Origin: a phage
Direction: 5' to 3' (one strand)
DNA: 44,882 nucleotides
Sequence record: PZ445419.1
The notes below the pieces were generated by a model that did no database searches, was not told the DNA's origin, and worked only from the letters and a program-made list of their open reading frames with translations. Below are positions 10,836 through 36,082 of the stretch, in pieces (the stretch's first letter is position 1; the number at the start of each line of letters is the position of its first letter). The translations under genes and the position numbers were made by a program.

Positions 10836-10839
10836 TGAA

Positions 10840-13862: not shown

Positions 13863-13869
13863 TAAAATG

Positions 13870-13897
13870 GCCCTCACTACAACGTGGGGGCTTTTTT
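13870..13897 (+). terminator. terminator-like hairpin between tape measure and distal tail genes
   Basis: GCCCTCAC-tacaac-GTGGGGGC (one G-U pair) followed by TTTTTT, ending at the ATG of the next gene. Confidence 0.45.
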
Positions 13898-15282: not shown

Positions 15283-15284
15283 TC

Positions 15285-16633: not shown

Positions 16634-19600
16634 CGATTATCTACGACGTCACTGGGCATAAAGGCGGCGGCGGCAAACAGCACACCCCGCAGGAAACGCC
16701 GGATAGCCTGCATTCCCTGGCTAAAATCCGCATCTTGCTTGCGCTAGGGGAAGGGGAATTCGAAAGTATTACCAGCGCAAGCGAATTGCGGCAGCGTGTA
16801 TACCTGGACGGCACGCCGATCCAGAACGCCGACCTGTCGGAAAACTTCCCCGGCGCTCGTGTGGAGTTCCGCCCCGGCACACAGCACCAGGATGTGATCC
16901 ACGGATTTTCAGCGGTGGAAAGTGAGCAGTCAGTCGGAGTAAAACTGGAAAACGGCACGCCGTGGGTGCGCCAGATTAATGACACCAGTCTTGACGCCGT
17001 GCGCATTCGAATCGGCATTCCAGCTCTGTACACAAACGAAGATAATGGCGACCTGGTGGGCGGGCGCATCGACTATAAGATCGTTGTGTATACGGATAAC
17101 GCAGACCCGCGTGAGTTCAGATTCGCCGCCGTTGGTAAAACAATGTCGCTATATGAGCGCGACCACCGCATCGAATTACCGCCGAACGTGAATACCGGCT
17201 GGCGGGTGGAGGTGCACCGCATAACGGCAGATTCCACATCGGCGAAAGTGGTGAACGATATTCAGGTACAATCAATCACTGAGATTATCGACGCCCGCCT
17301 GCGATACCCGCTAACCGCGCTGTTGTTCGTGGAGTTCGACGCTAAAGCGTTCCAGAACATCCCGCGCGTATCCATTAAGTGTAAAGGCCGCAAAGTGCTG
17401 GTTCCGAACAACTACGACCCGATTAATCATACCTATTCGGGCGACTGGGACGGTACGTTTAAACGCGCATGGACGGATAACCCCGCGTGGCACTGGTACG
17501 ATATTTGTATTACTGAGCGCTTCGGCCTCGGTCGGCGTATCAAACCGCAAATGTTAAACCGCTACGCGCTTTACCAGATTGCGCAGCGCTGCGATCAGCT
17601 GGTCAGTGACGGCAACGGCGGACGGGAAATCAGATTTAAGAATGATATGTACATCCAGTCACAGACGGATGCCTGGACCGTGCTTAAGGATTTAGCCGCT
17701 ATCTTTGCCGGTATGACCTGGTGGGGAAATCAGATGTTGAATATCGTCAGTGACCAACCGGTCGCAGCGGTGTCGCACACTATCACCAACGCCTCTGTCA
17801 TTGATGGTCGATTCGACTACGCATCTGGCAGCCAGAAAACTCGCTATTCCACATTCGCGGTAGCATACGGCAATCCGAAAAACCACTACGAAGACGCCAT
17901 CGCAACGGGCCAACGTGTCGAACTGGTGCGCCGCCATAAGATTAACCGTCTTGATATCACGGCGATCGGCTGTACGCGTGAGTCAGAAGCGCAACGACGT
18001 GGGCACTGGGCGCTAATCTCCAACCAGCTTGACCAGCAAGTTAGCTTTAAGGTTGGCATGGAGGGACTTTTCTTTATTCCGGGTAGCGTAGTCGCGATCG
18101 CGGATACAAACATTTCTGGCGGCTTCGAGACACGCGGCGGTCGCCTGTTGTCAGATCCTGGCACGCGGACTGTGCTGAACACAGACAGCGAAATCACGTT
18201 CCGCCCTGGGGATAAATTCCTGGTACGCACCGATAGCGGTAATGTGGAGACTCGCGAGATTGCCAGCGTCAACGGCAACAAGGTTACGCTAAAAACCGCA
18301 CTGGACGCCGACCCGATTCCTGATCAGCCGTTTTGCGTCGATGGCAACGATATCCAGTTGCAGAAGTTCCGCATCACCGACCTGGAATATGACGACTCTA
18401 CCAGCACTTTTTCAGTGCGCGGGATCGAATACAACGATAGCAAATATGATGCCGTTGATAATGGCGCTCGCCTTGACCCAGGCATCTTTACGCAAGTTCC
18501 TGACGGCGTAATGAAGGGGCCGGAGTCCGTGACCATTACCCCGTCGCAGATTTCATCGCAAGGCCAGCTAATCACCAACGTGGATATTGTGTTCCCGCCG
18601 GTGAAGGATGCCGTTGTTTATGAGATCCAGTGGCGACGTACCAGCTTGCAGAATATGGCGGTACAGTGGGGAAACGACTGGGTAAACATCCCACGTACGG
18701 CATCGAACGGCGCGCACATCCCTAACGTGTTTTCAGGCAATTATCAGGCACGCGTCCGCGCGATCGGTATGGGCGAGATTTCATCCCCGTGGGTGTCTTC
18801 TGCCATCACGCCGGTGGAAGGTCGTCTCGGCGGTCTTAACGCGCCTATCATCACCAACGCGATTTCGGGCCTTCACCAGATTTTGTGGAAGTGGAACCAC
18901 AATAACGCCGCGACGGATATTTCGTATACCGAGCTTGAGGTCCGCAAGACGGGCGAAACGGAATGGAAGTTCTTAACCAACGTCCCATATCCAGGGGCGG
19001 AGTATGCACAAACGTCGCTGGAGTTCGGCATCTATCAGCAGTTGCGCGCCCGTGTAGCGGATAAAATCGGCAACCTGTCGGACTGGTCGGACCCGTTTGA
19101 AGGGCAGGTGAGTGACAATGTTGACGAGTATATGAAGGGGCTGGACGACGAGTTCTTGACTTCTGAGGACGGTAAACGCTTCCAGGAAGCGATCGACACC
19201 ATGCCGCAAGGCATTTATGAGGCTATGCTCACCGACGCACAGCAATTGTTTAACGCCCGCGCCGAGTACAAGGGGATTTATGCAGAAATCTCGGTCGCGT
19301 ATAACGTGGCGGCAGATGCCCACCAGGCGGTAGCGCAACTGGAAACGTTGATCGGTACTCGCCTTGACGATGCGGAAGCGGCAATCCACACGTTGCAGAC
19401 CGCGCAGAGTACGCAGGAACAAGCGTTCGCCCAGTACCAGCAAACGGTTGCCGCTAAGTTTTCGGAACAGGAAGCCGCCATCCAGTCAGTGCAAACGGCA
19501 ACGGCGGACGTAGCGGGCGCTCTGGCGGAGTATAAGACCCAGGTCGCGGCACAGTTCGGTCAGCAGTCCGCCGCGATCGAGCAGAAGATGACGTCTTCGT

Positions 19601-20076
19601 TTAACCACTCCGGTGGTAGCGCAACGTACAGCCTTAAGGCGGGCGTGACGTACAACGGGACTTACTACGATGCAGGTATGCAGCTTTCCGTTGTGACGTC
19701 GGGCAGCGCTGTTAAATCCCGCATCGCGTTCAAGGCGGACCAGTTCTACATCATGCACCCGTCTAACGGCACTCTGTCGTCTGCGTTCATTGTTGACGGT
19801 GGGACAGTGTATATTGACACGGCACGCATCAAGAACGCGTCCATAAACTTCGCGCAGATCACGGACACGCTGCAATCGAATAACTTCGCATCAGGGTCAC
19901 GCGGCTGGCGTATCTGGAAAGGCGGCGCTGCGGAGTTTAACGAAGTAACGGTCCGCGGCAACCTGTACGCCACATCGGGTAACTTCGGGTTTTCTGGTGG
20001 GACCGTGACGATCGATAAGACAGGCGTAAACGTTCCGTTACCCGGCGGGGGACGGGTGAAAGTGGGGACTTGGTAA
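16630..20076 (+). CDS. central tail fibre / host specificity protein (lambda gpJ-like)
   Basis: 1148-aa ORF at the end of the tail-tip block, followed by a terminator. Confidence 0.8.
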   Translation: MTIIYDVTGHKGGGGKQHTPQETPDSLHSLAKIRILLALGEGEFESITSASELRQRVYLDGTPIQNADLSENFPGARVEFRPGTQHQDVIHGFSAVESEQSVGVKLENGTPWVRQINDTSLDAVRIRIGIPALYTNEDNGDLVGGRIDYKIVVYTDNADPREFRFAAVGKTMSLYERDHRIELPPNVNTGWRVEVHRITADSTSAKVVNDIQVQSITEIIDARLRYPLTALLFVEFDAKAFQNIPRVSIKCKGRKVLVPNNYDPINHTYSGDWDGTFKRAWTDNPAWHWYDICITERFGLGRRIKPQMLNRYALYQIAQRCDQLVSDGNGGREIRFKNDMYIQSQTDAWTVLKDLAAIFAGMTWWGNQMLNIVSDQPVAAVSHTITNASVIDGRFDYASGSQKTRYSTFAVAYGNPKNHYEDAIATGQRVELVRRHKINRLDITAIGCTRESEAQRRGHWALISNQLDQQVSFKVGMEGLFFIPGSVVAIADTNISGGFETRGGRLLSDPGTRTVLNTDSEITFRPGDKFLVRTDSGNVETREIASVNGNKVTLKTALDADPIPDQPFCVDGNDIQLQKFRITDLEYDDSTSTFSVRGIEYNDSKYDAVDNGARLDPGIFTQVPDGVMKGPESVTITPSQISSQGQLITNVDIVFPPVKDAVVYEIQWRRTSLQNMAVQWGNDWVNIPRTASNGAHIPNVFSGNYQARVRAIGMGEISSPWVSSAITPVEGRLGGLNAPIITNAISGLHQILWKWNHNNAATDISYTELEVRKTGETEWKFLTNVPYPGAEYAQTSLEFGIYQQLRARVADKIGNLSDWSDPFEGQVSDNVDEYMKGLDDEFLTSEDGKRFQEAIDTMPQGIYEAMLTDAQQLFNARAEYKGIYAEISVAYNVAADAHQAVAQLETLIGTRLDDAEAAIHTLQTAQSTQEQAFAQYQQTVAAKFSEQEAAIQSVQTATADVAGALAEYKTQVAAQFGQQSAAIEQKMTSSFNHSGGSATYSLKAGVTYNGTYYDAGMQLSVVTSGSAVKSRIAFKADQFYIMHPSNGTLSSAFIVDGGTVYIDTARIKNASINFAQITDTLQSNNFASGSRGWRIWKGGAAEFNEVTVRGNLYATSGNFGFSGGTVTIDKTGVNVPLPGGGRVKVGTW

Positions 20077-20082
20077 ATGCGA

Positions 20083-20104
20083 AGGGGCCATCCGGCCCCT
20101 TTTT
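20083..20104. terminator. terminator hairpin between convergent genes (near-identical to 23198-23221)
   Basis: AGGGGCC-atcc-GGCCCCT followed by TTTT; 3 bp after the J-like stop and overlapping the stop of the minus-strand gene. Confidence 0.65.
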
Positions 20105-21068
20105 AATACATATTCGGGATGACGAGTAGCGGGGTAGGTACGGCAATATTTTTACCTGGCATCTGGAATTGCCGCCGTGAGTAGTTGCCGATGACGCGGT
20201 TTTTAGCGACGCGCACATTATTACCCGCCATGCGTATCCCGTTCATTCGAACGTGGTTATAGCCCCCGTTGTTCTGAATCAGCGCGCCGGTGTATGAAAG
20301 CTGGATCAGGCTGTTTCCAATATTCTGGTCGCTCGTTCCGATGTTAATAGTGCGGTCATATACGAACGGCTTGTTCACCGTCGAGAACGTGACCTGATTC
20401 TGGTTATTCGTCATGGTGATGCCAGTCCCCGGAGTGGGGGGTGTATTGTTGAATATTACAAGGTCCATGTCCACCGAAGCCGCCACATCGTCGATGCCAC
20501 CGTAGGACGCGTTGCGGACGATAATACTGCCGCCATCGAAGCCTACTGATACGTTGCCGTCATCCCAGCGGGCGAACGGAACACCACTAACAGGCAAGGC
20601 CATACTCCCGTTGACGCGCACGCGCTTTGCGTATCTGCAGGTCATCAGCTTCGCCACGTTGGATATTGCGGTGAAGTCCGTCGAGTTTGCCACCAGTAAA
20701 CCAGCGTTACGCGACCCAACCGGCAGCACTTCCATTATGACGCCCGCCCATTGTGGTAAACCAGAGTACGCGCCATACGCATCATCCCCGCGCAGGGTTA
20801 TTCCGCTATTACCGTTGCGCGTAACCGACGTAACGTAAAACGGATCGGGTATTACCAGGGTCTGGTCGAATACCTCAATCACTTCTACCGGGCGAGTGAG
20901 AGCGACGACGACCTGCGACCCCGCCGTAAGAGGGGTGTTAATGGTTAGCGTCTTGTTGGACTGTGCCCGCTGGTTAAAGCTGGTGCAGTATGACGGCGCG
21001 CGAAGTCCCGCGGTGATCTCCATGCGCGGTCTTCCGTCGTTATAGTCGATAAGTATTCCAGCGCCCAT
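20103..21068 (-). CDS. hypothetical Asn/Gly/Ser/Thr/Val-rich beta-type protein (possible receptor-binding or exclusion partner)
   Basis: 321-aa ORF from ATG 21068 with GGGAG RBS (track starts at GTG 21077); opposite strand to the tail genes, directly downstream of the lipoprotein gene; no catalytic motif recognised. Confidence 0.55.
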   Translation of the reverse strand: MGAGILIDYNDGRPRMEITAGLRAPSYCTSFNQRAQSNKTLTINTPLTAGSQVVVALTRPVEVIEVFDQTLVIPDPFYVTSVTRNGNSGITLRGDDAYGAYSGLPQWAGVIMEVLPVGSRNAGLLVANSTDFTAISNVAKLMTCRYAKRVRVNGSMALPVSGVPFARWDDGNVSVGFDGGSIIVRNASYGGIDDVAASVDMDLVIFNNTPPTPGTGITMTNNQNQVTFSTVNKPFVYDRTINIGTSDQNIGNSLIQLSYTGALIQNNGGYNHVRMNGIRMAGNNVRVAKNRVIGNYSRRQFQMPGKNIAVPTPLLVIPNMY

Positions 21069-21070
21069 TA

Positions 21071-21292
21071 TTACCACTCCCGTGATTTAACTGATACTGT
21101 GCCTGAGAAATTGCCGTCGCTATCTGAAGACAGCCCCGTGAATCGCATGTCCACATCTCCTGCCGGGACTTTTTGCCCATCAACGTAGCGCAACATGCAG
21201 CTACCGTACGCAACCGTAATGCAATCGCCGTTGTTGCGTTCTACGGCGCAACCGGATAAAAGAACCGCACAAATCATAATTAAAGTTTTCAT
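21071..21292 (-). CDS. small lipoprotein; candidate Cor/Llp-type superinfection-exclusion protein
   Basis: 73-aa ORF with signal peptide and lipobox MKTLIMICAVLLSGC, AGGGGA RBS; reverse-oriented next to receptor-recognition genes. Confidence 0.6.
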   Translation of the reverse strand: MKTLIMICAVLLSGCAVERNNGDCITVAYGSCMLRYVDGQKVPAGDVDMRFTGLSSDSDGNFSGTVSVKSREW

Positions 21293-21372
21293 GGTATCAT
21301 CCCCTATATTTGGTTGAGTTTTAGTATTACACCGCTCAACCAGGATTGCAACCAATTTAAGAGGATTCAGCT

Positions 21373-23193
21373 ATGGCAGCGGGTACGCTATCGGTAACGA
21401 ATAATAGCAAGGCGGTAGTAGGGGTCGGCACAACGTTTACCGCGTTTAAAGCGGGCGACTTCTTAACGCTGGTGGTAGGACAAGTCCCATACACCGTGGC
21501 AATCGCGTCCATTGAAAGCGCAACCGCGCTCACGCTGGTACTGCCGTTCGACGGCCCAACGGCAACCGGCCTTGCGTGGGATGGCGTTAAGCGCGATACC
21601 ATGTCGCTGGCAACGATGGGCGTTACCGTACAGGCCCAAAAAGCATTGCGCTTGATGATTGCAGATGAAAACAACTGGCGTGCAATCTTCGGCGATGCTG
21701 AAGAAATCACAGTCACGCTCCCGAACGGGCAAGTTATGCAGGGTATGTCGTGGGGCTACCTGTCGTCTTTGCTGAAGGAAGTAGACCCCGTTGAGATGCG
21801 CAACCTGCAACAACAAGCCGCCGCATCGGAAGCAGCCGCGCAAGGATTCCGTAACGAGGCGGAAGGCTTCAAGAACGACGCCAACACCATCAAGACGCAG
21901 ACCAGCCAACTTAAGGCAGATACGCAGGCGATCAAGGACCAGACCACTCAACTTAAGGCAGATACGCAGGCGATCAAGGACCAAACGAATCAGATCAAGA
22001 CTGACACTGGCGTTATTCGTGATGAAGCCAATACCGCGAAGGAGGACGCGCAAGCTGCCCGCACTGCCGCGCAAGGATTTCGCAATGAGGCCGAACAATT
22101 CGCTAATAGTGTTAACCCGGAAAACCTACTTGCGAAGGCCAACAACTTAAGTGATGTTGCGGATGTGGCTGTGGCGCGCGAAAACATTGGTGTAGACCGC
22201 CTAACGCAAAACATAACCAGCGGCGAAACACAAATCAGGACTGCGGCGAAGAATAAATGGATCTTCGTTAAGGAAAATGGCGACTGGGGCGGGTGGGATA
22301 ATGCCAACAATAAAGCCATGCCGCTGCCGATTGCATTCGGTGGTACGGGGCGCGGCGATAACGTCGCCGAGTTCCGCCAATTCAAATCAAACGGCGACAC
22401 CCAAGATGGGTTAATCATTACGCAGAACGGGTCTGGATTTGGTGGTGTATGCTGGGGGGATTCCGCCGATAAAGTACGCTGGCGCATGGGGATTAACGAC
22501 GCCGCGGGTAATTTTAAGTTGCACTCATATGACGCGTCGGGCGCGTACCGCGATACCTTTATGGAGATCTCTGGATCGGGGATAAGCGGCATGGTGTGTC
22601 ATCGAGATATCACGGTCCGCCCAACAGCGACAGCTCCAGTGTTGTCTTTCGTCCTAAACAACGGAAAAGCTACCGTCCCGGCTGGTAACGTCCGCACGAT
22701 GTGGGATACGGTTAGTATCAAGAGTAACCTGATCTATAAATATTTTGAGAAGGGAGACGGCACTGGCTTCACAGTCAACTGGCCCTCATCTGGTGGTGTT
22801 ATTGCCCTCCAGGGTACATCGGGGCGGGACTTTAAGAAAGATATTACCGACGCGGACGTTACAGAAGCGGTTGCACGCATTGAACAAATGCGCATGGTGC
22901 GCTACGTGTATAAGGACGATGTGCAGGAGCGCGTCCGCTTCGGCATCATTGCCGAGGAAGCAGAAGAGATTGCGCCTCAATACATCAAACACCGTGAGGA
23001 GACGTACGATGTGGAGGTGGACCCCGAGACTAACGCTATCATCGGCGGTAAAACCCGAGACAGGCCATCGGTGGACGTAAACCCGATCGTTATGGATTTA
23101 ATGGGGTGCGCACAATATGCGATCGCTGAGTGTAAACGCCTGGCGGCGGAAGTGGAGGATTTGAAAGCCGAGATCGCGGCGTTGAAGAAATAA
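21373..23193 (+). CDS. side tail fibre protein with possible C-terminal intramolecular chaperone domain
   Basis: 606-aa ORF with Q/T/K-rich tandem repeats (QLKADTQAIKDQT x2) and a C-terminal region resembling self-cleaving S74-type fibre chaperone domains; followed by a terminator. Confidence 0.7.
   Translation: MAAGTLSVTNNSKAVVGVGTTFTAFKAGDFLTLVVGQVPYTVAIASIESATALTLVLPFDGPTATGLAWDGVKRDTMSLATMGVTVQAQKALRLMIADENNWRAIFGDAEEITVTLPNGQVMQGMSWGYLSSLLKEVDPVEMRNLQQQAAASEAAAQGFRNEAEGFKNDANTIKTQTSQLKADTQAIKDQTTQLKADTQAIKDQTNQIKTDTGVIRDEANTAKEDAQAARTAAQGFRNEAEQFANSVNPENLLAKANNLSDVADVAVARENIGVDRLTQNITSGETQIRTAAKNKWIFVKENGDWGGWDNANNKAMPLPIAFGGTGRGDNVAEFRQFKSNGDTQDGLIITQNGSGFGGVCWGDSADKVRWRMGINDAAGNFKLHSYDASGAYRDTFMEISGSGISGMVCHRDITVRPTATAPVLSFVLNNGKATVPAGNVRTMWDTVSIKSNLIYKYFEKGDGTGFTVNWPSSGGVIALQGTSGRDFKKDITDADVTEAVARIEQMRMVRYVYKDDVQERVRFGIIAEEAEEIAPQYIKHREETYDVEVDPETNAIIGGKTRDRPSVDVNPIVMDLMGCAQYAIAECKRLAAEVEDLKAEIAALKK
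21906..21989 (+). repeat. 42-bp in-frame tandem duplication inside the tail-fibre gene
   Basis: CAACTTAAGGCAGATACGCAGGCGATCAAGGACCA present twice in tandem with minor changes. Confidence 0.6.
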
Positions 23194-23197
23194 TTAG

Positions 23198-23221
23198 AAG
23201 GGGCCATGCGGCCCCTTTTTT
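23198..23221. terminator. terminator hairpin between convergent genes (near-identical to 20083-20104)
   Basis: AAGGGGCC-atgc-GGCCCCTT followed by TTTTTT; lies between the fibre stop (23193) and the stop of the minus-strand early operon (23220). Confidence 0.7.
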
Positions 23222-23795
23222 AGTTTGAGTTTTCCCAATCCATTTTGCGCCGCACCAGGGGGCTTTCGTAGTATTCCTTTCCTTCCACTTCCAATAAAGG
23301 CCAGTCATTAACAATCACGTATGGCTCCGCAATATCCTCGATCACGCCATGCGCGCTTTGCGGCCCTAACGACACACCAACCAGGATAACACCGGCAACA
23401 CGACGGGCAAGATACTCGCGAGCGCAGCGTGCCTCTACCAGTCCGCGACGGATGCCGCTGGTGGCCTTAACTTCGTAGGTCCATACGGCATCGATCACAT
23501 GCTCGCGGAAGTCTGGACCGGTCTTAACCTTGCGTTTGCCAACCATGATGATATCGCCGCGGTCAATGGTATTGGCGCTAAACAAGCCGGTACGCATAAG
23601 CAAACCTTGCGGTATGCAACTACGCCCGCCCGCCTGCCCTTCAAGGTACATGCCTGCAAACATCTCGCCCAGCACACCGACAAGACGGCTTTGCTTGCAC
23701 GCGTCAGACTTGTATCTCCACTGGTCAAACTCGATGCTTGCTATCATTGCCGCCAGGTGGAATTGTTTACCAGATATTTCGTATTCGCCGTACAT
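23220..23795 (-). CDS. hypothetical protein (possible PD-(D/E)XK-like motif)
   Basis: 191-aa ORF, last gene of the minus-strand block; D...EVK spacing in IDAVWTYEVKAT is reminiscent of a nuclease motif, weak. Confidence 0.45.
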   Translation of the reverse strand: MYGEYEISGKQFHLAAMIASIEFDQWRYKSDACKQSRLVGVLGEMFAGMYLEGQAGGRSCIPQGLLMRTGLFSANTIDRGDIIMVGKRKVKTGPDFREHVIDAVWTYEVKATSGIRRGLVEARCAREYLARRVAGVILVGVSLGPQSAHGVIEDIAEPYVIVNDWPLLEVEGKEYYESPLVRRKMDWENSN

Positions 23796-23837
23796 TGTGG
23801 ATCCTTCATTGATGCGGGCCGAAGCCCGCTATTAGCA

Positions 23838-24359
23838 TTATTTAAGTGCGCCAGTCACCAGTGTTTTTTCCATGTTACGGAAATCTTCCTGCGTCATGCA
23901 GATTTTCGATCCGTCTTCGCCGGTGAGTACGACCATAGGCTGGACGTCCTGGGATACGACGCCGAAATCGGCGGCTTTGACAGTCTTGCCCGCAGATGCC
24001 GAAGGACGCCACGTTCCGCCGGTGGAGATGGGCCAGCCTTTGAGGCTGTCGAATTGTGCTGCCGTTGTATCGATCTGAATCTCGTCATGCACGGTCATGT
24101 AAGACTCACCCAGCAGTGCGGCATATGCTACCAGGTCAACGATGTTATCGTCCTGGTGCTTACGGTGCTGGCGTACCAGCTTCAGGCAGATCAGGAAGGT
24201 CCAGGCTTCTTGCTCGGTAAGGTCGCGACCGGTAAGCGCGTTAAACACGGCAGCGATCTGCTTAGCACTGCGTTCTTCTTTCGCGTTGTCATAGCCATTC
24301 TCTTTCCCGCGCTGTTCCATAGTGGTGGCGGCGTTTTTGCAGTATTCGTATGCTTTCAT
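23838..24359 (-). CDS. hypothetical protein
   Basis: 173-aa ORF with AAAGGAAA RBS directly downstream of a palindromic promoter/operator. Confidence 0.55.
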   Translation of the reverse strand: MKAYEYCKNAATTMEQRGKENGYDNAKEERSAKQIAAVFNALTGRDLTEQEAWTFLICLKLVRQHRKHQDDNIVDLVAYAALLGESYMTVHDEIQIDTTAAQFDSLKGWPISTGGTWRPSASAGKTVKAADFGVVSQDVQPMVVLTGEDGSKICMTQEDFRNMEKTLVTGALK

Positions 24360-24401
24360 GATGTTTTTCCTTTAGCGGGGCCGTATTGCCCCGACGAGTT
24401 A

Positions 24402-24431
24402 AATATAATGCAACCAACCTATTGGTTGCAA
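24402..24431 (-). promoter_or_regulatory. candidate sigma70-type promoter overlapping a palindromic ATTGGTTGC operator
   Basis: Minus strand TTGCAA-18 nt-TATATT; spacer is the perfect inverted repeat TGCAACCAA-tagg-TTGGTTGCA (24409-24430); GC hairpin in the leader at 24376-24395. Confidence 0.45.
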
Positions 24432-24889
24432 GTGAATTTTGCAACGTTAATTGCGTAAATTTTCGGGACCAGATCGCTGCACGCCCGACGAATTGCCGCG
24501 ATGTTCTTCGGGCAGTCCTCAATGATGACCAGTTCAGACACGTCCGCGTAGCAGACCATTTTGAACACGGCGCACGCCTTAAACTCAGGCGGTGGGGTGT
24601 CGTCCAACATGTGGCGCATAAACAACCGGCCTGTCGGGAATACTTCCAGTTGCTCGGCGGTAGTCTCCCAACATTCGCGCTGCCGGTTAGTCAGATACGC
24701 TATCTCGAAGCCTTGCTCTTTGTACATGCGCAGCAGCGGCAGCATATCCATGTTCAGGTCTTCGCGGACGTGCGCTTTGTGCCACTTTGCCCAAAAGGTT
24801 GATTTCGTTTTTATGCCCGGCACCAGGTCGGCGCGTGCATCACTCGAACCATTAATAACGCCATCCAAATCGCAAATCAGTAATTTCAT
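24419..24889 (-). CDS. HAD-superfamily phosphatase-like protein
   Basis: 156-aa ORF beginning MKLLICDLDGVING (HAD motif I DxDGx). Confidence 0.55.
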   Translation of the reverse strand: MKLLICDLDGVINGSSDARADLVPGIKTKSTFWAKWHKAHVREDLNMDMLPLLRMYKEQGFEIAYLTNRQRECWETTAEQLEVFPTGRLFMRHMLDDTPPPEFKACAVFKMVCYADVSELVIIEDCPKNIAAIRRACSDLVPKIYAINVAKFTCNQ

Positions 24890-25110
24890 TTTAAGCTCTC
24901 AATAAGGGTTTCTCGGGCGCTTCGCGCAGTAAAGGAGTTGCATACGAAATGGCAACGCTGGGTCATGACAAGCCAACCGGTGAGATCAAGGCCCATGATG
25001 CGTCCGGGGTGAGACGCGCGCACCACATGATTGCGTCGCGGGTCAATGCCGTAGTCTTTTTGCATTTGGTCTACGACCGCTGGGTCGCGGTCAACGATTA
25101 AGATATTCAA
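24886..25110 (-). CDS. hypothetical protein
   Basis: 74-aa ORF, translationally coupled to neighbours on the minus strand. Confidence 0.4.
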   Translation of the reverse strand: MNILIVDRDPAVVDQMQKDYGIDPRRNHVVRASHPGRIMGLDLTGWLVMTQRCHFVCNSFTARSARETLIESLK

Positions 25111-25576
25111 GGAGTTCTCCTTCGCTCATTATTTCAATTTGTGCGCTGCCGATTGGTGGCGCTTCGTCAAATATTATCAATTGCTGGCACTTGTTATTGC
25201 TTGGCCCGACTTCGCCGGTGACGGCGTGAATGAATCTAATCCGCCAGTCCAGAAGAATTATCAGGTTTGCAGTCTTCCTGGCCAGCTTCGCCCACTTCGT
25301 CGACGTATCCTGATTCAGTAGCATGACCGTCCGGCGTCCGTGCGCTGCGCACTCTACCCACGGCAGCGGATCGGAATACGGCGGATTGCACCACTTCCAC
25401 CCTTTCAACTCGGACCAGTCCACATCAAGCGCGCTGTGTTCCGCCGTGAAGTAACGCGGTAGCAGATGATTGGCGTCGCTTGCCGCCATATCGTAACGGA
25501 ATCGGTACTTCCGACGAAGCGGTTTAAATAAAGCTGGCGGCGTGCGCCAGCTATCTTTTTGCTCACTCTTCTGCAT
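25091..25576 (-). CDS. dam: DNA N6-adenine methyltransferase (phage Dam-like)
   Basis: 161-aa ORF with WRTPPALF, DMAASDANHLLPRYFT and the catalytic NPPY motif (WCNPPYSD). Confidence 0.75.
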   Translation of the reverse strand: MQKSEQKDSWRTPPALFKPLRRKYRFRYDMAASDANHLLPRYFTAEHSALDVDWSELKGWKWCNPPYSDPLPWVECAAHGRRTVMLLNQDTSTKWAKLARKTANLIILLDWRIRFIHAVTGEVGPSNNKCQQLIIFDEAPPIGSAQIEIMSEGELLEYLNR

Positions 25577-26021
25577 GATCTGGATCTATCGCGTACAGGG
25601 CAATTTTCTTGTCGCTGGACAGAACGCGCCGGACTCGGGCCATATCCGCCGGACCCAGCGGTCGGCTATCGGAATAGTAGCTGCCGTTAGCACGCCACGC
25701 TATCAGCACCAGATCTTTCCGGTCGATCTTAGACTGGCGGCCCTTCGGGCGCACGTATTCCTCGGCCCGTTTGCAATGCTCGCGCAGACCTTCGGCAGTG
25801 ATGCGGTTTAGTGCAACGCTGGTTGTGTATCCGGTGCGCTGCATAATCCCCATCAATTCGAAAAGCAGTTCGAAGCGCTCCTCTAGCTCCTGGCGCACTT
25901 TCTTCTCACCTTCATATAGCGCCTGTTTGGTGTCCGCCAGCGCGTTCGCACGTTCGGCCTGTTCGCGGGCTTCGAGGCATTGCGCGGCCCAGTAATTTTT
26001 CTCTTCTTGTAAAATTTTCAT
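25563..26021 (-). CDS. hypothetical protein
   Basis: 152-aa ORF with coiled-coil-like N-terminus. Confidence 0.5.
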   Translation of the reverse strand: MKILQEEKNYWAAQCLEAREQAERANALADTKQALYEGEKKVRQELEERFELLFELMGIMQRTGYTTSVALNRITAEGLREHCKRAEEYVRPKGRQSKIDRKDLVLIAWRANGSYYSDSRPLGPADMARVRRVLSSDKKIALYAIDPDHAEE

Positions 26022-26264
26022 TTATTTAATCTCCGTAGTGCGAATCTCTTTGCGTGGAATAAATTTGCCGTCCATCTCCACCCAGCAGACTCCGTATCGC
26101 CATTGGGTATTTCGTCCCGTTTGCTCGGGGTATACGGTCTTGCATTCGTAGCGTTCCGTGTAGTAAATAGCCGCGGTAGGTACGCAAATACAAACGGCAA
26201 ACATGAGGAGGAGTATCACCCAAAATCGAAGGTCGCCGTCGTAGTCGAAAAATAATGATTTCAT
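26022..26264 (-). CDS. small membrane protein (hypothetical)
   Basis: 80-aa ORF with one TM segment WVILLLMFAVCICVPTAAIYY and AGGAGA RBS. Confidence 0.5.
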   Translation of the reverse strand: MKSLFFDYDGDLRFWVILLLMFAVCICVPTAAIYYTERYECKTVYPEQTGRNTQWRYGVCWVEMDGKFIPRKEIRTTEIK

Positions 26265-26283
26265 CGCGTTGTCTCCTGGTATT

Positions 26284-26309
26284 AAAAAGGGCGTCCAAAC
26301 CGGACACCC
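26284..26309 (-). terminator. terminator-like hairpin in intergenic leader
   Basis: Minus strand GGGTGTCC-ggttt-GGACGCCC followed by TTTTT, between two tandem ATTGGTTGCAT motifs and the RBS of the downstream gene. Confidence 0.45.
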
Positions 26310-26345
26310 TCAATATAATGCAACCAATATGATTATGCAACCAAT

Positions 26346-26669
26346 TTACGCATAAAAGTTCGGGTCGCGTGCAACGTCTACCAGGTAAAGGTTGCTTATG
26401 CGGTTGCCGTAGTGCCCTGGAGTGCGCTGGCGGCACACAACGGCGAAGCCTGGAGGGATTGTATTGCCCGTCTCAATAATCCACGCCACGCGTGCGCCAG
26501 ACAGCGTCTTTCCGTTGCATTCGATACGTGTTCCGCCGTCGGCAGTATTGATGTTGCCAATCTTGCAGCCGGTGGACTTCAGACGGATGACTCCGGTTTT
26601 GCTGTCGTAGGTGAATAGCTGGTTAGTCATTGCGACCGAAAAATCAATGGTTTCGTATGTAGCGTTCAT
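26346..26669 (-). CDS. HNH-family endonuclease-like protein (putative homing endonuclease)
   Basis: 107-aa ORF; C-terminal PGHYGNRISNLYLVD resembles the HNH_3 signature and the N-terminal half resembles NUMOD4-type modules; His/Asp catalytic residues not cleanly identified. Confidence 0.45.
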   Translation of the reverse strand: MNATYETIDFSVAMTNQLFTYDSKTGVIRLKSTGCKIGNINTADGGTRIECNGKTLSGARVAWIIETGNTIPPGFAVVCRQRTPGHYGNRISNLYLVDVARDPNFYA

Positions 26670-27376
26670 TTTAAATTTTCCTCGTTAACCGCTATCGCGA
26701 AGCCGCGCGGAGTGAGCGACCGGATTAATTTTGTGCGGGCTGATTTACCACCGAGGCGACTATACTGTTTCGAGTACCCTTTTTCAACGAAAACAGGTCT
26801 CTTCTCTGGCATACGGAAGCCGTTGCCGGTCCATAAGCAGGTCAGCTTCGGATATGAATCGCGGGCGTTGATGTATTCCGGGAAGAGCGGGTGTACGTCA
26901 TCCTCCGGCAGATAGCCCCCATACTCCCACGGGTCGAACGAGTGATCCGGCTTGCGCCACTGGGTGGAAAGCACACTGCGCGGATTCTCAATCATATATG
27001 GCACTTCGAAGAAGTCACCCAGGTAAGCGGCGATCTTCGCGGTGCGCACCGCCTTAAGCTGAAAGGCTGGGTCTTTCGCACGCTTGCGCGGGAAAGCTGG
27101 CGCGCCGCTCACTGCCAGATCCGTACACGGAGGGAACGCGTAGATGATATCCGGCGTACCGAAATCGCCATTCATCGCGCGGTCCACGAAGTCCAGATCG
27201 ATAAACTCATTGCGATAGCGGATTCCGCGACCATAGATCCGGTAGTCAAGGTAAGACCCGTGGTCGGCTTCGGAGTAGTTGAAGCAATAACACTTATGCC
27301 CCATCTCGGCGGCACGCTCAATCATCAAGCCGCTGCCGTCAAACAGTGACCAGATTGTCATTTTAGCAATAGTCAT
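26666..27376 (-). CDS. SAM-dependent DNA methyltransferase-like protein (C5-cytosine-type motifs)
   Basis: 236-aa ORF with motif I-like SLFDGSG, a PC dipeptide in FPPCTDLAVSG and an ENV-like IENPRS; shorter than typical C5 methyltransferases. Confidence 0.45.
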   Translation of the reverse strand: MTIAKMTIWSLFDGSGLMIERAAEMGHKCYCFNYSEADHGSYLDYRIYGRGIRYRNEFIDLDFVDRAMNGDFGTPDIIYAFPPCTDLAVSGAPAFPRKRAKDPAFQLKAVRTAKIAAYLGDFFEVPYMIENPRSVLSTQWRKPDHSFDPWEYGGYLPEDDVHPLFPEYINARDSYPKLTCLWTGNGFRMPEKRPVFVEKGYSKQYSRLGGKSARTKLIRSLTPRGFAIAVNEENLK

Positions 27377-28797
27377 TTGCGCGCCTTTTTAGCTTTCATG
27401 TATTCCATCAAGTCGTCCTGGATATCTCGCTTACTGTCGCGGCGCTCGGCGACCAATTCGTCCAGTGTCCCGCGCGCCTGGATAATGTAGACGAATACCG
27501 GTCGAGGGTGTCCGGCCTGCATCTGGCGAACCGGCCCGATACGTTCAACGATCTGCGAAAAGTGCTCAAAGTTCCAGGTATCGGAGAAGATTGCCAGGTG
27601 ATGACCGCCGTCCTGCAAGTTAAGGCCGTGGCCCGCCGATGCCGGGTGCGCAAACATGATGGGGATCTCGCCCCTGTTCCACGCTTCCATATCCTTATTG
27701 CCCTGCTTACCCTTACCCAACGCAACGCCGTGCGGAAATTTCTTCTTAAGACGTGCCAGATCATGCTTATACTGATACGCAACGAGCAACGGGGCGCCGT
27801 TCAACTCCTCTACGATACTTTCCAGCGCGTCCAGCTTGGCGTCGTGGATCTTCACCCACTCGTCGGTCCGTTCGCCGTCTTCGTCCACCTTATATACAGC
27901 GCCGGAAGCAAGCTGAAGGCACTTGATGGTCTTCGACGCCGCGTTCGCCGCTTCCACTGTTCCGCTTTCCAGTTCTGCAAATAGCTCGCTTTCAAACTGG
28001 TCATAAATCTTGCGCGCTTTCTTCGGCAGGTCCACAACAACCGGCGTATAGATTGGCTTGTCGCACCCGAAGTATTCCGCCGCGTCAACGGTGAGGGATA
28101 CATCTGACAGACGTTGTTGTATCTCTTTCTCGGAGTTCTTTAGCGGGGCGTGCTGCATAGTGAAGCTGCCAGGCTTAACAGGCTTGCTAATGAACCAGCG
28201 GTCGGTAAATGCCTTATAACTACTGCCGAGTCGTTCGCCACCGTCGACAAACCACGTCTGACCCCATAAGTCTTTTAGCCCGTTTGGCGCTGGTGTGCCG
28301 GTAAGGTTAATCCAGCGCTTGACGTGTTTATGTGCAATCGCTGCCAGTGCGCGGGCGCGCTTGCTCCCCTGCTTGCTACGATAGCCTTTCAGCTTAGTCG
28401 ATTCATCGGCAACAACGACCGTAAAGGGCCACGCATCGCCGTAATAGTCGACCAGCCACTCGACCACATCGTAGTTAACACAAACCACGTTAGCGTCGCT
28501 CTCAAGCGCAGCGATGCGGTCCTTCTCTGACCCAGTGCCGTCTACTACCAGCAAGGCTGGGAAGCGCCATTTCTCCTGTTCCGGGGGCCATGTACCGGAC
28601 GCAACGCGCAGCGGGGCCAGCACCAGTACGCGGTCATCCTGGTTGGACAGGATGCCGGTCTGGAACATTTTATTCAGCGCCCACATGGTCGCGCCGGTTT
28701 TACCCGACCCCATTGTCGCCCAAATATTGCAGCGCTTATGCTTGAGGATGAACGCGGTTATCAACTTCTGATATTCGCGGCGTCGGAATCGTGCCAT
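27373..28797 (-). CDS. SNF2/DEAD-like superfamily 2 helicase
   Basis: Walker A MGSGKTGAT, DExx box VVADESTKLKG and LTGTP motif; ATG 28797 preferred over track start 28887 because it avoids overlapping the upstream gene. Confidence 0.75.
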   Translation of the reverse strand: MARFRRREYQKLITAFILKHKRCNIWATMGSGKTGATMWALNKMFQTGILSNQDDRVLVLAPLRVASGTWPPEQEKWRFPALLVVDGTGSEKDRIAALESDANVVCVNYDVVEWLVDYYGDAWPFTVVVADESTKLKGYRSKQGSKRARALAAIAHKHVKRWINLTGTPAPNGLKDLWGQTWFVDGGERLGSSYKAFTDRWFISKPVKPGSFTMQHAPLKNSEKEIQQRLSDVSLTVDAAEYFGCDKPIYTPVVVDLPKKARKIYDQFESELFAELESGTVEAANAASKTIKCLQLASGAVYKVDEDGERTDEWVKIHDAKLDALESIVEELNGAPLLVAYQYKHDLARLKKKFPHGVALGKGKQGNKDMEAWNRGEIPIMFAHPASAGHGLNLQDGGHHLAIFSDTWNFEHFSQIVERIGPVRQMQAGHPRPVFVYIIQARGTLDELVAERRDSKRDIQDDLMEYMKAKKARK

Positions 28798-28801
28798 TTC
28801 T

Positions 28802-29020
28802 TTATTCCGCCTTTTTCCAGACTTCGGTTTCACTGTTCCAGTTCCTTTTTGTAGCGTCGTAGTTGGTGGCGTGTCCGATGTGCACACCGGTAGCCCGGAA
28901 GCTCTTAAATTTTTGCCAGCACACCGTCAACGGCAGCGGATCATTCATACCAGCGATAAACCATACGCGATCACCCGGTTTACATTCGCCCAGCTTGGTG
29001 AGTCGGTAATGTTCTTTCAT
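28802..29020 (-). CDS. hypothetical protein
   Basis: 72-aa ORF from ATG 29020 with GGGAGA RBS. Confidence 0.45.
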   Translation of the reverse strand: MKEHYRLTKLGECKPGDRVWFIAGMNDPLPLTVCWQKFKSFRATGVHIGHATNYDATKRNWNSETEVWKKAE

Positions 29021-29063
29021 CGTCATGTCTCCCAAAAATGGCGGGACAAGCCCGCCGTATTAA

Positions 29064-29237
29064 TTATTTTTGTTCTGCACGGTAGCGGCGCTGCCGTTCG
29101 CGCTCTTTTTTATTGCGGCACGATTTGCACTCTGCCCGATACCCGTCTGGACTGCGCGCAGTCTTACCGGTGTATTTGTGGAACTGGGATAGCGGCTTTA
29201 CACAGCCGCAATTACTACAACGTTTTTCTTCAATCAT
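29064..29237 (-). CDS. small zinc-ribbon protein (hypothetical)
   Basis: 57-aa ORF with CSNC...CKSC pairs, ATG 29237 with GAGGA RBS; the track TTG start at 29297 is rejected. Confidence 0.5.
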   Translation of the reverse strand: MIEEKRCSNCGCVKPLSQFHKYTGKTARSPDGYRAECKSCRNKKERERQRRYRAEQK

Positions 29238-29277
29238 CTCTAAAATCCTCGATATGGCTAACCGGCACACTATACCG

Positions 29278-29556
29278 CTATGCGACCAATTCAGCAACCA
29301 ATAAATCGCAGTCGGCTATGTTGTCGATAACGCGAACGTCCGCACCGCGGCGGGCCATTCGATCATGTTCACGTACTTGGTGCGGCTTCGGTTTTCCTCC
29401 GGGGCGCTTCACTTCGACGAACACTATTTTGCCGTTGATGATAATAATCAGGTCGGGAGCACCTGCGCGCCCCTCCCATGCCAGTTTTCTGCAGAATCCG
29501 CCGACCTCTTTAACCCGTTTCATAAGGTGACGCTGCACCTTGCCTTCTGGTGTCAT
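29278..29556 (-). CDS. VRR-NUC domain nuclease
   Basis: 92-aa ORF with PD-(D/E)XK-type core APDLIIIINGKIVFVEVKRPGGKP. Confidence 0.65.
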   Translation of the reverse strand: MTPEGKVQRHLMKRVKEVGGFCRKLAWEGRAGAPDLIIIINGKIVFVEVKRPGGKPKPHQVREHDRMARRGADVRVIDNIADCDLLVAELVA

Positions 29557-29662
29557 TTAGTTTGCAATTCCACGTTACGCAGACGAAGGTCTACCGGTAT
29601 ATCCGATCGACCGGTTAGCGCCAGCGCCAGCGCGCATAATGCTCATTTCTGCTTTCATAATC

Positions 29663-31954
29663 TTACTTCCTGTACCTGTACATAATGTCGCCTTCGGCGG
29701 CAAGTGGGAAGCCTTTCGCCCAAATAGGCAGGTCGCACATCAGCGCGCAAAGCTCCTCTGTCGTGTAGTCGTCGGTGTCCGGCACTTCTGTGATCAATTC
29801 ATCATGCACCGATAGAACGATTTCATAGCCCGCAGCTTCAACGCCAGGCATTGACCAGGCGAGAATATCACGGCACAACGCCTGTACTATGTTCTCCGTC
29901 AGTTTGCCGCCGTAGGTATACTGGAAGCCCCACTGGCGCGTCGTCTGATTCTCGCCCTGATATTTAATGCGTGTGCTGGTGCGCTTCTTGCCGGTGTCTT
30001 CGTCAATCTCGGTAGTGACAGACAGCGCTATGCCGGGGTAGCTCATGATGCGCCCCGACGGCAACTCAATTTTCAACCACCACCCCGCGGCGTTCGGGTC
30101 GTCGCGCTCCTCGTCAAAGGTTGGGTCGTGCTTCGCCTTCGTACGGACAATCTTGAGCGCTTTTCTACCGTCCGGGCGAACGTTCGCACCAGCCCAGTAT
30201 GCTTTGCCCGGATTGCGGATTGCACACAACACCGCGTCCTCAAGCTCGGCCCAAAAGGCTACCGTCTTCGGGTGAGCCTCGCGCCACATACGTTTGATCG
30301 CGTCGCAGGTCAGCCAAACGTTTTTAGGCAGTATGTAAGTCGGGCGCTCGTCCTTCTTGCCCGGCTTCGGCGGTCGCTTCGCTTCGTTAATGCGGGCGTA
30401 CTCATAACCCCGTTTAGCCGCTGCCCAAATGTGATCGGGGAATGTGCCCTTCATGACGTCCGCCATCGCGTAAAGGTCGAGGCCCAGGTTTTTAGCGAAC
30501 TGCAAGAACGCAGCCACGCCGCCGCCATAGCCAAGTCCCAACTCACACGCCTTACCAATCTGGCGTAGGTCTTTGCGGTTGGCTTTAATGTATTCCGGGT
30601 CAAGGCCGAACATCTTACCGGCAGTTTCACAATAAATATCGCGACCGGCCCTAAACACCATTAGCGCGGTTTTCTCACCAGCGATCCAGGCGAGGCCACG
30701 CCCTTCCACGTTAGAGTAGTCCGCTACGACAAACTTCTTGCCCTTAGCCGGGATAATGCACCCGCGAACGGTCGAGGCTGTTAGCTTAGATATGTCATAC
30801 GCCCAGTGCGCGGTCCCGCGTAACAGGGAATTGATGCCGTTGGTGAGCATGTGCGACCGGACCCAAAAAGCAACGTCGCTCTCGCCTTCGCGGCGCTTAA
30901 TCTTCCCTTCGTGATCGTCGCTATACTCGCCGCGTGCCAGGTTTTGAGGCTGGAAGCCTTTACCAGCCCAGCGCAGCGTGCGCTTTGCGCCGCCATACTG
31001 AAGACACCCACGGCGGCGACCATCTGCTGATAAGCCGTTAACTAGCGGATTGTACTTAGTCGATGCCGTTGATGACGCACCGAGGCGCATTTCGATAAGC
31101 GCTTTGCCTTCGTCGGGGAAGTCCGGGTCTTCAAGCAGGTCGTTAAGTGTGGATTTCTGCGCGTTGTGGATCGTGAACGCCGGGGCGATATCACGCAGGA
31201 TTGGCAGGAAGTCATTGCCGGTCAGCTTACCGCCAAATCGCTCCCAGGCTTCCTCCTTCAATTCTTCCTTATGCGCCTGCACCGCTTTGATCGCGGCGTT
31301 CGCCAGGTCAACGTCCACATAGAAGCCGCGGTCGTTGATCAACTGGTCGATAAGCAGGATTTCATCTTCCTTCGGAGTATTACCCCAGTCCGGTATGCGC
31401 CAGTAGACCTCACGCATCGCGATAATATCCAGCGCGGCATATCGCAGAAATTTGGCCCATTCTTCAGGGTGAGTCTCGCGAGTGTAGCGGCGGATTTTGT
31501 AAGTCTTAGGGGTCGGCTTACAGAATCGTTTGATCAGCGCCTTGCCTGCCTTATCCTTCGCGTGATCTGCGTCAACGCCCAGCACCTGACACTGCATATC
31601 GAGGCTGCCCGGCAGCGCGTGCCGAAAGGCCATAATCATGGTATCTTCGATCTGGCTTACCGGCAGGTCGATTCCCCACTTCTCACGGATAACCAGGCGG
31701 TCAAACAGGAGGCCGTTAGCCATCACGATTTTTGCTTTCTTGCGGGATACCTGACGGAGCGCCTTGCGCAGTTCACGCGGCATTGTTGGGGATTCAGTGG
31801 CATCCCATGTCTGCACGCGGCCTTCGTCGATGGCGTAGGTGCAAATCATAATCTCGGTGGTTGGGTGCTCTGCGTAGGCGTACGCCCCTACTTTCTTCAG
31901 GTCCACCCCGCTAAATGTCTCGGTGTCGAGAAACAGACGTTCGAAGTCTTTCAT
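29663..31954 (-). CDS. DNA polymerase I-type (family A) with 3'-5' exonuclease domain
   Basis: 763-aa ORF; N-terminal exo motif FLDTETFSG, C-terminal polymerase region including VHDELITEV. Confidence 0.85.
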   Translation of the reverse strand: MKDFERLFLDTETFSGVDLKKVGAYAYAEHPTTEIMICTYAIDEGRVQTWDATESPTMPRELRKALRQVSRKKAKIVMANGLLFDRLVIREKWGIDLPVSQIEDTMIMAFRHALPGSLDMQCQVLGVDADHAKDKAGKALIKRFCKPTPKTYKIRRYTRETHPEEWAKFLRYAALDIIAMREVYWRIPDWGNTPKEDEILLIDQLINDRGFYVDVDLANAAIKAVQAHKEELKEEAWERFGGKLTGNDFLPILRDIAPAFTIHNAQKSTLNDLLEDPDFPDEGKALIEMRLGASSTASTKYNPLVNGLSADGRRRGCLQYGGAKRTLRWAGKGFQPQNLARGEYSDDHEGKIKRREGESDVAFWVRSHMLTNGINSLLRGTAHWAYDISKLTASTVRGCIIPAKGKKFVVADYSNVEGRGLAWIAGEKTALMVFRAGRDIYCETAGKMFGLDPEYIKANRKDLRQIGKACELGLGYGGGVAAFLQFAKNLGLDLYAMADVMKGTFPDHIWAAAKRGYEYARINEAKRPPKPGKKDERPTYILPKNVWLTCDAIKRMWREAHPKTVAFWAELEDAVLCAIRNPGKAYWAGANVRPDGRKALKIVRTKAKHDPTFDEERDDPNAAGWWLKIELPSGRIMSYPGIALSVTTEIDEDTGKKRTSTRIKYQGENQTTRQWGFQYTYGGKLTENIVQALCRDILAWSMPGVEAAGYEIVLSVHDELITEVPDTDDYTTEELCALMCDLPIWAKGFPLAAEGDIMYRYRK

Positions 31955-32962: not shown

Positions 32963-33027
32963 TTTCCAATTCCTCATTTTCACATGCATCGGGGTTATTG
33001 GAAGCCACCCCGTTCGGCTTGGTTGCC

Positions 33028-33056
33028 AATTTACTTGGTTGCGCCTGAGCGGTCAA
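33028..33056 (-). promoter_or_regulatory. candidate sigma70-type promoter for the ssDNA-binding protein gene with ATTGGTTGC-family motifs
   Basis: Minus strand TTGACC-17 nt-TAAATT; motif copies at 33035-33043 (in spacer) and 33019-33027 (just after the -10). Confidence 0.45.
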
Positions 33057-36011: not shown

Positions 36012-36082
36012 TAACCAATAAGAGACAATGAGACGGGAATTATTATTACACGCGTGCGCGCCCGTTTCAATATCCAAAGGAT

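Follow-up and report, generated by a model that had tools for sequence, protein, structure and literature searches.

A conserved nine-base word on the promoters of Escherichia phage Oekolampad is a candidate operator of a phage-encoded regulator

What is the function of a short asymmetric word that recurs throughout the genome of a small phage and that, at positions 24402–24431, stands as an inverted pair over a promoter-like sequence? The window analyzed is the complete genome of Escherichia phage Oekolampad (Bas18, genus Dhillonvirus; 44,882 bp), and the word is the 9-mer ATTGGTTGC, for which an earlier reading of the DNA (the original prediction) favored an operator of a phage-encoded regulator over a promoter element. 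By megablast, positions 20000–30000 match this phage at 100%. Gene names follow the deposited record (MZ501095 / NC_073089), of which the window is a rotation, record coordinates being window coordinates plus 551. The record holds 65 annotated genes in four blocks: rightward structural genes, the leftward replication genes gp28–gp49, a rightward block that begins with gp50 and then the primase–helicase gene gp51, and a block of small open reading frames (ORFs) and lysis genes. Oekolampad was named Bas18 in a study that treats Dhillonvirus, a relative of the T1-like Drexlerviridae, as a genus of small lytic siphoviruses (PMC8594841). Neither an integrase nor a CI-type repressor was found among the 65 annotated genes or in domain scans of 28 gene products.

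The word is strongly enriched. Both strands together hold 15 exact copies, versus 0.47 ± 0.64 expected (100 dinucleotide shuffles, maximum 3), making ATTGGTTGC the commonest 9-mer of the genome; allowing up to one mismatch raises the count to 30, versus 13.3 ± 3.3 in shuffles (maximum 21). Six one-mismatch copies lie in promoter regions or beside exact copies (24410, 29282, 33018, 33034, 42688, and 42711), and the remaining nine are intragenic, a number expected by chance. Twelve of the 15 exact matches lie wholly between genes, although intergenic DNA makes up 6.6% of the genome by the deposited annotation (binomial P = 2.6e-12). The other three touch genes: one falls on the final codons of gp30 (24421), another on the 3′ end of gp40 (29294), and the third inside gp54 (39961). 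Both the claimed excess over chance and the almost wholly intergenic placement are therefore borne out. The copy positions given in the original prediction were right to within 1 base, apart from a copy placed at 38858 that lies at 38848 and the exact copy at 39961, which had been overlooked. Dispersed phage operators are characteristically short and asymmetric, recur many times, and are concentrated between genes; ATTGGTTGC shows this distribution. The GC-rich 9-mers CGTTGCCGT, AACGGCAGC, and ACGGCAGCG occur in 10–15 copies in each Dhillonvirus genome examined, as frequently as the motif, apparently in coding regions.

Copies sit on promoters predicted from hexamers (consensus scan and reading of the sequence). 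Copies span about −41 to +11 of σ70-like promoters in either orientation. At 10 motif-bearing loci, −35/−10-like pairs are found 16–18 bp apart, with the hexamers kept in five genomes. Each promoter carries one to three sites, which cover the −35 or the −10, lie in the spacer, or fall at approximately +1 to +11. Two copies are the usual load, with a centre-to-centre spacing of 9–35 bp (9, 11–17, 22–23, 31, and 35 bp in Oekolampad and its relatives). Orientation relative to transcription is not fixed, as had been claimed: 13 copies are codirectional with transcription (F) and eight are reversed (R). The constant distance and orientation to the −10 that mark a MotA box, an extended −10, or an UP element are thus absent from these copies. 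Genome-wide, the consensus promoter scan gave no excess of matches over shuffles, so hexamer matches by themselves prove nothing; five of the scan's six intergenic promoter matches carry the motif. Outside the structural block, almost all transcription units begin with a motif-bearing promoter, namely gp07, gp26, gp29, gp34, gp39, gp43, gp48, the rightward small-ORF cluster, and the unit from 42681. The structural block itself (1–20000) has no motif save the gp07 copies, and the scan found no intergenic promoter match there. The preference for an operator over a promoter element was favored by every computational test run, but with a qualification. Because six promoters (gp26, gp29, gp34, gp39, orf39284, and one in gp54) draw their −35 hexamer from TTGCA at the motif's 3′ end, no sharp line divides operator from promoter element.

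The motif is conserved across the genus, which we sampled as Oekolampad, HK578, EK99P-1, SO-1, and WFI. The latter four have 13–15 exact ATTGGTTGC copies each, at orthologous positions. When 11 motif-bearing regions were aligned over the five genomes, 168 of 171 motif columns (98%) were invariant, versus 657 of 876 other columns (75%; Fisher P = 1.3e-15). The gp07 promoter illustrates this pattern: the eight-base stretch that separates the −35 from the first copy is different in each phage, and both copies are unchanged. The gene downstream of this promoter has been swapped (an Nmad5 protein in Oekolampad, a RusA-like protein in SO-1, another in HK578), so that a variable "moron" slot always lies under the same motif-bearing promoter. 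We found no description of the motif in literature on the genus, on HK578, on SO-1, or on the motif string; in the HK578 record, three consensus promoters are annotated for the divergent region and the motif is not.

Conservation extends to more distant relatives. Four metagenomic contigs reached through gp50 homologues (L006, L008, L010, and L133) have an Oekolampad-like gene order, with identities of 66–70% for the primase–helicase and ∼82% for the polymerase. In all four, TTGGTTGC is among the top five 8-mers, ranking first in L010, and occurs in 12–14 copies, 9–11 of them intergenic (P from 6e-8 to 1e-9). The surrounding intergenic DNA of these distant relatives is not alignable with that of Oekolampad, which indicates that the word itself is under selection. 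Orthologous promoters of the relatives vary in the arrangement of copies, yet the copies stay inside the core promoter. One example is the leftward promoter of L006, L008, and L010, which reads TTGAC-GCAACCAAC-GCAACCAAT-C-TAnnAT, such that the whole spacer consists of two tandem copies.

An IMG/VR scan for TTGGTTGC-N1-20-TTGGTTGC returned 120 stretches; apart from those in Dhillonvirus contigs, most were chance pairs, tandem arrays, or repeats in collagen-like coding sequence. One unrelated contig, L028 (IMGVR_UViG_3300030118_006568, GC 41%), has eight TTGGTTGC copies in 220 bp (7759–7986), immediately after a Prim-Pol/DUF3987 primase–helicase gene and with an HTH_3-type gene nearby downstream. 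No gp50 homologue was found in the fetched stretch of L028. The cluster resembles the origin or operator of its phage and is probably a coincidence arising from search selection.

The candidate binder is gp50 (36143–36472, plus strand), a protein of 109 amino acids (aa) with a long helix followed by a C-terminal helix–turn–helix (HTH). The original prediction had singled out this protein by its HTH, and Pfam and the structural model agree that it is a genuine one: Sigma70_r4_2, HTH_23, and HTH_28 all match above cut-off, and the AlphaFold model (predicted local distance difference test score, pLDDT, 89) comprises a short helix, a 58-residue helix (22–79), and the HTH (84–91 and 95–108). The long helix probably forms a coiled-coil dimer. 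This is the sole HTH match among the 28 products scanned; the other 27 contain no HTH or other transcription-factor domain, the nearest matches being of nuclease type (VRR-NUC and HNH/Lar-like). Homologues of gp50 occur only in Dhillonvirus-like phages (155 phage records, 35 protein clusters). Their N-terminal third is free to vary, and their C-terminal 60 residues, which include the predicted recognition helix N-x-S-T-[VI]-[RK]-x-W, are almost invariant. The gene always stands at the motif-bearing divergent promoter region, before the primase–helicase gene, and in L006, L008, and L010 its promoter carries a full GCAACCAA at about +3 to +11, ∼9 nt past the −10. NCBIfam gives gp50 weak sigma-factor and insertion sequence (IS) 630 HTH matches. 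The database labels "transposase," "resolvase," and "nuclease inhibitor gamma" are unsupported by fold and sequence searches, and domain and fold searches revealed no similarity to a Q antiterminator.

We propose that a phage-encoded regulator, most likely gp50, reads the motif as its operator on promoters, and we assign this reading a probability of about 0.55. The proposal joins the enrichment, promoter and intergenic location, pairing, and conservation of the word with what was found for gp50, namely its HTH, its constant gene neighborhood, and its sequence conservation. Its parts differ in strength. From the sequence data, the motif very probably is a protein operator acting on transcription; that gp50 is the protein that binds it has somewhat better than even odds, and a net effect of repression is moderately likely. 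Competition with RNA polymerase is suggested because position and orientation vary, copies are paired, the word is conserved within variable flanks, and a copy lies on the promoter of the regulator. These features are a much better fit to an operator than to a promoter element of fixed position, a motif acting in RNA, or a set of origin iterons. Mechanistically, gp50 would be made from its own strong promoter, which heads the rightward operon. Bound at its sites in core promoters, the regulator would exclude RNA polymerase by competition. Accumulating gp50 would then turn down these host σ70-type promoters, probably including that of its own gene, as Cro does in lambda. The likeness to Cro lies in the proposed logic, a small early HTH protein that damps early transcription and its own from sites over the −35 and −10. 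Cro differs in acting on palindromic 17-bp operators at two loci, whereas the present word is asymmetric, 9 bp long, and spread over about ten promoters; Cro also has no sequence or fold relationship to gp50 beyond the HTH.

Several observations weigh against this proposal. HK578 has no copy at the promoter of its gp50 homologue. Foldseek and PDB profile searches with gp50 returned only generic trihelical HTH domains (LuxR/GerE, resolvase, and IS transposase HTH at E ∼1), a designed repeat protein, and coiled coils. The most divergent gp50 homologues reached, the HK578-type proteins and P0032 in L133, show 39% identity, and their recognition helices read STIRQWAK in HK578 and STIKNWIY in L133, with the motif unchanged in both. 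Because the motif is constant where the recognition helix differs, the binder may be a protein that does not evolve with the phage, possibly one of the host. The late structural genes have neither motif nor recognizable promoter, and repression of every promoter would leave no evident route to their expression. Finally, the motif-derived −35 hexamers are weak (TTGCAT, TTGCTG, and TTGCAA), as would be expected of an activator site that replaces the −35.

The last point leads to an activator site or a dual-function switch, in which the bound protein would recruit polymerase where a forward motif replaces the −35, in the manner of PhoB, class II activators, and T4 MotA. As a dual switch, it would activate at gp26, gp29, gp34, gp39, and the small-ORF promoter and repress at gp48, gp43, and 42681, where the copies are reversed. 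As an activator site, it would turn the weak motif-bearing promoters into middle promoters that depend on an early protein for activation. We consider this alternative unlikely. It is consistent with the match of the six motif-derived −35s to TTGACA at only 3–4 of 6 positions, with the company that reversed copies keep (−35s of TTGACA, TTGACC, and TTGACT), and with the gp50 promoter, which is strong and lacks a full copy in Oekolampad. However, in most forward-class promoters a further copy covers the −10 or lies in the spacer, where a bound protein should hinder polymerase, copy position relative to the −10 differs between orthologous promoters in a way that activators rarely tolerate, and the promoters look usable by σ70 unaided. 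A bolder version, distinctly unlikely, would have the orientation and position of one 9-bp site set the sign of regulation, so that a single HTH protein runs the whole temporal program and perhaps also marks the origin region next to the primase–helicase gene; the early units repressed would then include gp48, gp43, 42681, and gp50 itself.

The invariance of the word in the face of a changing recognition helix would be most simply explained by a binder that does not evolve with the phage, such as a host reader, be it RNA polymerase itself or a DNA-binding protein of E. coli, which the phage would tap at its promoters. TTGGTTGC is indeed constant across phages whose proteins are at 40–70% identity, the putative recognition helix included, and the motif overlaps the −35-like TTGCA. 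Such a reader is nonetheless improbable: the copies stand in either orientation and also cover the −10 and +1, unlike an element recognized by polymerase, and a conserved phage HTH protein adjoins the motif-bearing divergent promoter region. We know of no E. coli regulator or polymerase element with this consensus. The consensuses for σ54 (GG-N10-GC), NtrC, lambda CII (TTGC-N6-TTGC), IHF, DnaA, boxA, and the CspA ATTGG "Y-box" also misfit the motif in spacing or sequence.

As an operator of a phage regulator, the motif is conceptually unsurprising, because dispersed operators of phage regulators are well known. The gp71 stoperators of L5 and the C1 operators of P1 are asymmetric repressor sites dispersed over the genomes of temperate phages. 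The Dhillonvirus word shares with them a short asymmetric site in roughly 17–30 copies, nearly all intergenic and some on promoters, with one small HTH protein as presumed reader. The binder in those systems is the immunity repressor of a temperate phage, whereas Dhillonviruses are treated as virulent. Stoperators of L5 additionally keep one orientation and also block elongation, whereas the Dhillonvirus copies stand in both orientations in core promoters. By analogy, the motif would work like the L5 and P1 systems without belonging to them, as it does not follow the L5 orientation rule and the phage lacks lysogeny genes. The T4 MotA box and the PhoB pho box are alike in placing a motif at the −35 of a −10-competent promoter, as seen here at six promoters. 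Those boxes are fixed in position and orientation, in contrast to a motif that is variable and has extra copies over the spacer, −10, and +1.

The nearest relatives of Dhillonvirus are T1-like phages (PMC8594841). One of these, TLS, has a 21-nt intergenic repeat, aaATAGCACnnnTTGnTAAAA, in 18 codirectional copies ∼76 nt before start codons, and the function of T1-like intergenic repeats was listed by the authors as an open question (PMC11447400). Both cases present a dispersed intergenic repeat in a small lytic siphovirus that uses the host polymerase. They differ in sequence, length, orientation rule, and distance, the Dhillonvirus 9-mer being paired, in either orientation, and inside promoters. 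Solving the Dhillonvirus motif would probably inform the T1-like repeat question, and vice versa.

Dhillonviruses are common E. coli phages that are represented in the BASEL collection and used for work on defense systems and phage therapy; to our knowledge, nothing is known about the timing of their transcription. One conserved word on essentially every promoter, together with a candidate reader, amounts to a regulon that can be tested directly, with some 20 sites and a single protein of 109 aa. The motif also offers a handle to control the expression of inserted genes.

Individual leftward promoters show how the copies are laid out. At the locus that raised the question, the gp29 promoter (TTGCAA-18-TATATT, −35 24431–24426, −10 24407–24402, minus strand) was recovered as originally described, and the inverted pair is perfect (24409–24430, arms of 9 bp without mismatch). 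Relative to ATTGGTTGC, its members are the one-mismatch copy GTTGGTTGC (24410–24418, minus strand, F), 2 nt before the −10, and an exact copy (24421–24429, plus strand, R) that supplies the −35 on the minus strand. The gp26 promoter (TTGCAA-16-TAATAC, −35 21351–21346, −10 21329–21324, minus strand) takes its −35 from an exact copy (21348–21356, minus strand, F) and has a further degenerate copy in its spacer; just 3′ of the −10 lies TTTGGTTGA, a reversed copy with two mismatches (21309–21317, plus strand). On the plus strand, the exact copy directly precedes the Shine–Dalgarno (SD) sequence of the tail-fibre gene gp27. Two copies likewise occupy the gp39 promoter (TTGCTG-17-TATAGT, −35 29297–29292, −10 29274–29269, minus strand): the one-mismatch copy ATTGGTCGC in the spacer (29282–29290, minus strand, F) and, within the 3′ end of gp40, an exact copy that gives the −35 (29294–29302, minus strand, F).

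Reversed copies are found at gp43 and gp48. The SSB gene gp43 has the promoter TTGACC-17-TAAATT (−10 33033–33028, minus strand), with the one-mismatch copy CTTGGTTGC 1 nt 3′ of the −10 (33018–33026, plus strand, R) and another one-mismatch copy in the spacer, touching the −10 (33034–33042, plus strand, R). The strongest promoter match, TTGACA-18-TATCAT (35966–35937, minus strand), heads the leftward replication operon at gp48; it too was recovered by scan or by reading of the sequence, with an exact copy in its spacer (35944–35952, plus strand, R).

The gp34 promoter (TTGCAT-17-TATATT, −35 26340–26335, −10 26317–26312, minus strand) carries one exact copy 2 nt before the −10 (26320–26328, minus strand, F) and a second that gives the −35 (26337–26345, minus strand, F). 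Three GC hairpins had been noted near copies, and all three fold, with energies of −12.7 (24376–24395), −17.6 (26289–26309), and −9.7 kcal/mol (38769–38786). The hairpin at gp34 (26286–26309) had been described as a leader hairpin; it is more than that, being a terminator that overlaps the promoter. The −10 abuts a 10-bp terminator hairpin with a T run (26278–26317, minus strand; −17.6 kcal/mol, z = −4.6), and a start ∼7 nt past the −10 would lie in the 5′ arm of the hairpin. This terminator would block read-through from upstream rather than transcripts begun at the gp34 promoter. The promoter–terminator layout is kept in L008 and L133 with other stem sequences. Lambda-type Q antitermination was considered and rejected, because only the gp34 promoter is directly followed by a terminator, the others having the usual order or none.

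Rightward, gp50 is preceded by TTGACA-17-TAGTTT (−35 36083–36088, −10 36106–36111, plus strand), with the degenerate palindrome TTGGTCATTAACCAA 2 nt past the −10 (36114–36128, plus strand). Between the divergent promoters (region 35978–36070), a promoter-like TTGAAA-17-AATAAT with a TG extension lies on the minus strand (36070–36042) and is followed ∼25 nt later by the hairpin AGCGCCG...CGGCGCT (36012–35986) and a T run. The resulting ∼55-nt transcript would underlie the annotated 36-aa gp49 and could be a small RNA; the DNA stretch is conserved in all five genomes.

The densest cluster of copies, six in 500 bp (38759–39259), directly follows the primase–helicase gene in every relative. Exact copies lie at 38759–38767 (plus strand), directly 3′ of that gene and within a ∼54-bp duplication present in Oekolampad and also in L132; at 38813–38821 (plus strand), 35 bp upstream of the next; and at 38848–38856 (plus strand), 13 nt before a −10-like TATTAT (38870–38875) that points into the region of a second repeat, GCGGGACA. 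The −10-like hexamer is conserved, as TATAGT or TATAAT in relatives. A further exact copy (39130–39138, minus strand, reversed) overlaps the promoter-like TTGGCA-17-TATGCT (39127–39155). The second repeat, GCGGGACA, has 15 exact copies versus 2.2 expected, of which 12 form two plus-strand clusters (10840–11157 and 38908–39068). One ∼55-nt element, ccccagtctttcagactagacgggggtcaatggcccccctcgtctgagactgaataa, comes after both clusters, which correspond to repeat regions A and B of the SO-1 record. The region B unit is GCGGGACA in Oekolampad and L008, GGTGCCA in L006 and L133, and GTGTGGCA in L010. Judged by their sequences, repeats of the GCGGGACA type are candidates for origin iterons whose specificity changes between phages, and the annotated gp52 (38874–39059), which overlies them, may not be a gene.

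Could the ATTGGTTGC copies themselves be iterons, bound by an initiator (gp50 or gp51) at a replication origin, with the promoter copies secondary, for example to couple transcription and replication? The position and density of the cluster, the replication-module-like pairing of gp50 with the primase–helicase, and the label of repeat region given to this stretch in the SO-1 record are in keeping with that idea. We consider it quite improbable, as two thirds of the copies are single or paired over promoters 3–34 kb away, and the second repeat of the cluster region changes between phages whereas TTGGTTGC is constant.

The cluster ends at the promoter of the small-ORF cluster, TTGCAT-17-TAGATT (−35 39225–39230, −10 39248–39253, plus strand). 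One exact copy gives its −35 (39220–39228, plus strand, F), and a second overlaps the −10 and ends at about −1 (39251–39259, plus strand, F), ahead of an ATG at 39284. The ORF from this ATG (39284–39763, 159 aa) has a good SD, and the start of gp53 in the record lies later, at window position 39458; probably the annotated gp53 start is wrong, or a small upstream gene is missing. Further downstream, an exact reversed copy within gp54 (39961–39969, minus strand) is kept in all five genomes and gives the −35 of a promoter-like pair, TTGCAA-17-TACATT (39959–39964 and 39982–39987, plus strand).

The leader of orf39284 (ATTGGTTGCACACCAACA, then the SD) is nearly identical to that of gp07, whose promoter (TTGCAC-18-TATATT, −35 5276–5271, −10 5252–5247, minus strand) bears two exact copies. 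One (5255–5263, minus strand, F) is in the spacer, invariant next to spacer bases that vary among phages; the other (5241–5249, minus strand, F) covers the last 3 nt of the −10 and reaches about −1. The latter, with a downstream ACCAA, forms a TTGGT-N5-ACCAA palindrome. Such palindromes occur genome-wide only at 5234–5248, 36114–36128, and 39252–39266, each 1–3 nt before the SD of gp07, gp50, or ORF 39284, and ACCAA(C/T) also stands immediately before the SD of gp27 and of an ORF at 42741.

These leaders bear on an RNA element, GCAACCAAU or AUUGGUUGC, that would act in 5′ leaders by the SD to control translation or mRNA stability. The direct placement of ACCAA(C/T) before the SD at gp07, orf39284, gp50, gp27, and ORF 42741 speaks for such an element, as does the 5-bp hairpin that TTGGT-N5-ACCAA could form at three leaders. 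Even so, we regard it as very improbable. Many copies lie at the −35 or in the spacer, upstream of plausible starts and hence untranscribed from the adjacent promoter; copies occur in both orientations; and an Rfam scan, like a tRNA scan, found no match.

The unit from 42681 bears copies at its promoter as well. Its promoter, TTGACT-18-CATACT, was confirmed at 42681–42710 (plus strand). One reversed one-mismatch copy begins 1 nt past the −35 (42688–42696, minus strand), and a second (42711–42719, minus strand), exact in SO-1 and WFI, touches the downstream side of the −10 and is followed by an SD. Directly after this promoter is an unannotated 29-codon ORF with a strong SD (MARNDIWVLAIWSAAAFIGMVICEVTYGI, 42741–42830). 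Its product is hydrophobic and may be a small membrane peptide, and its ATG and SD are kept in other Dhillonviruses.

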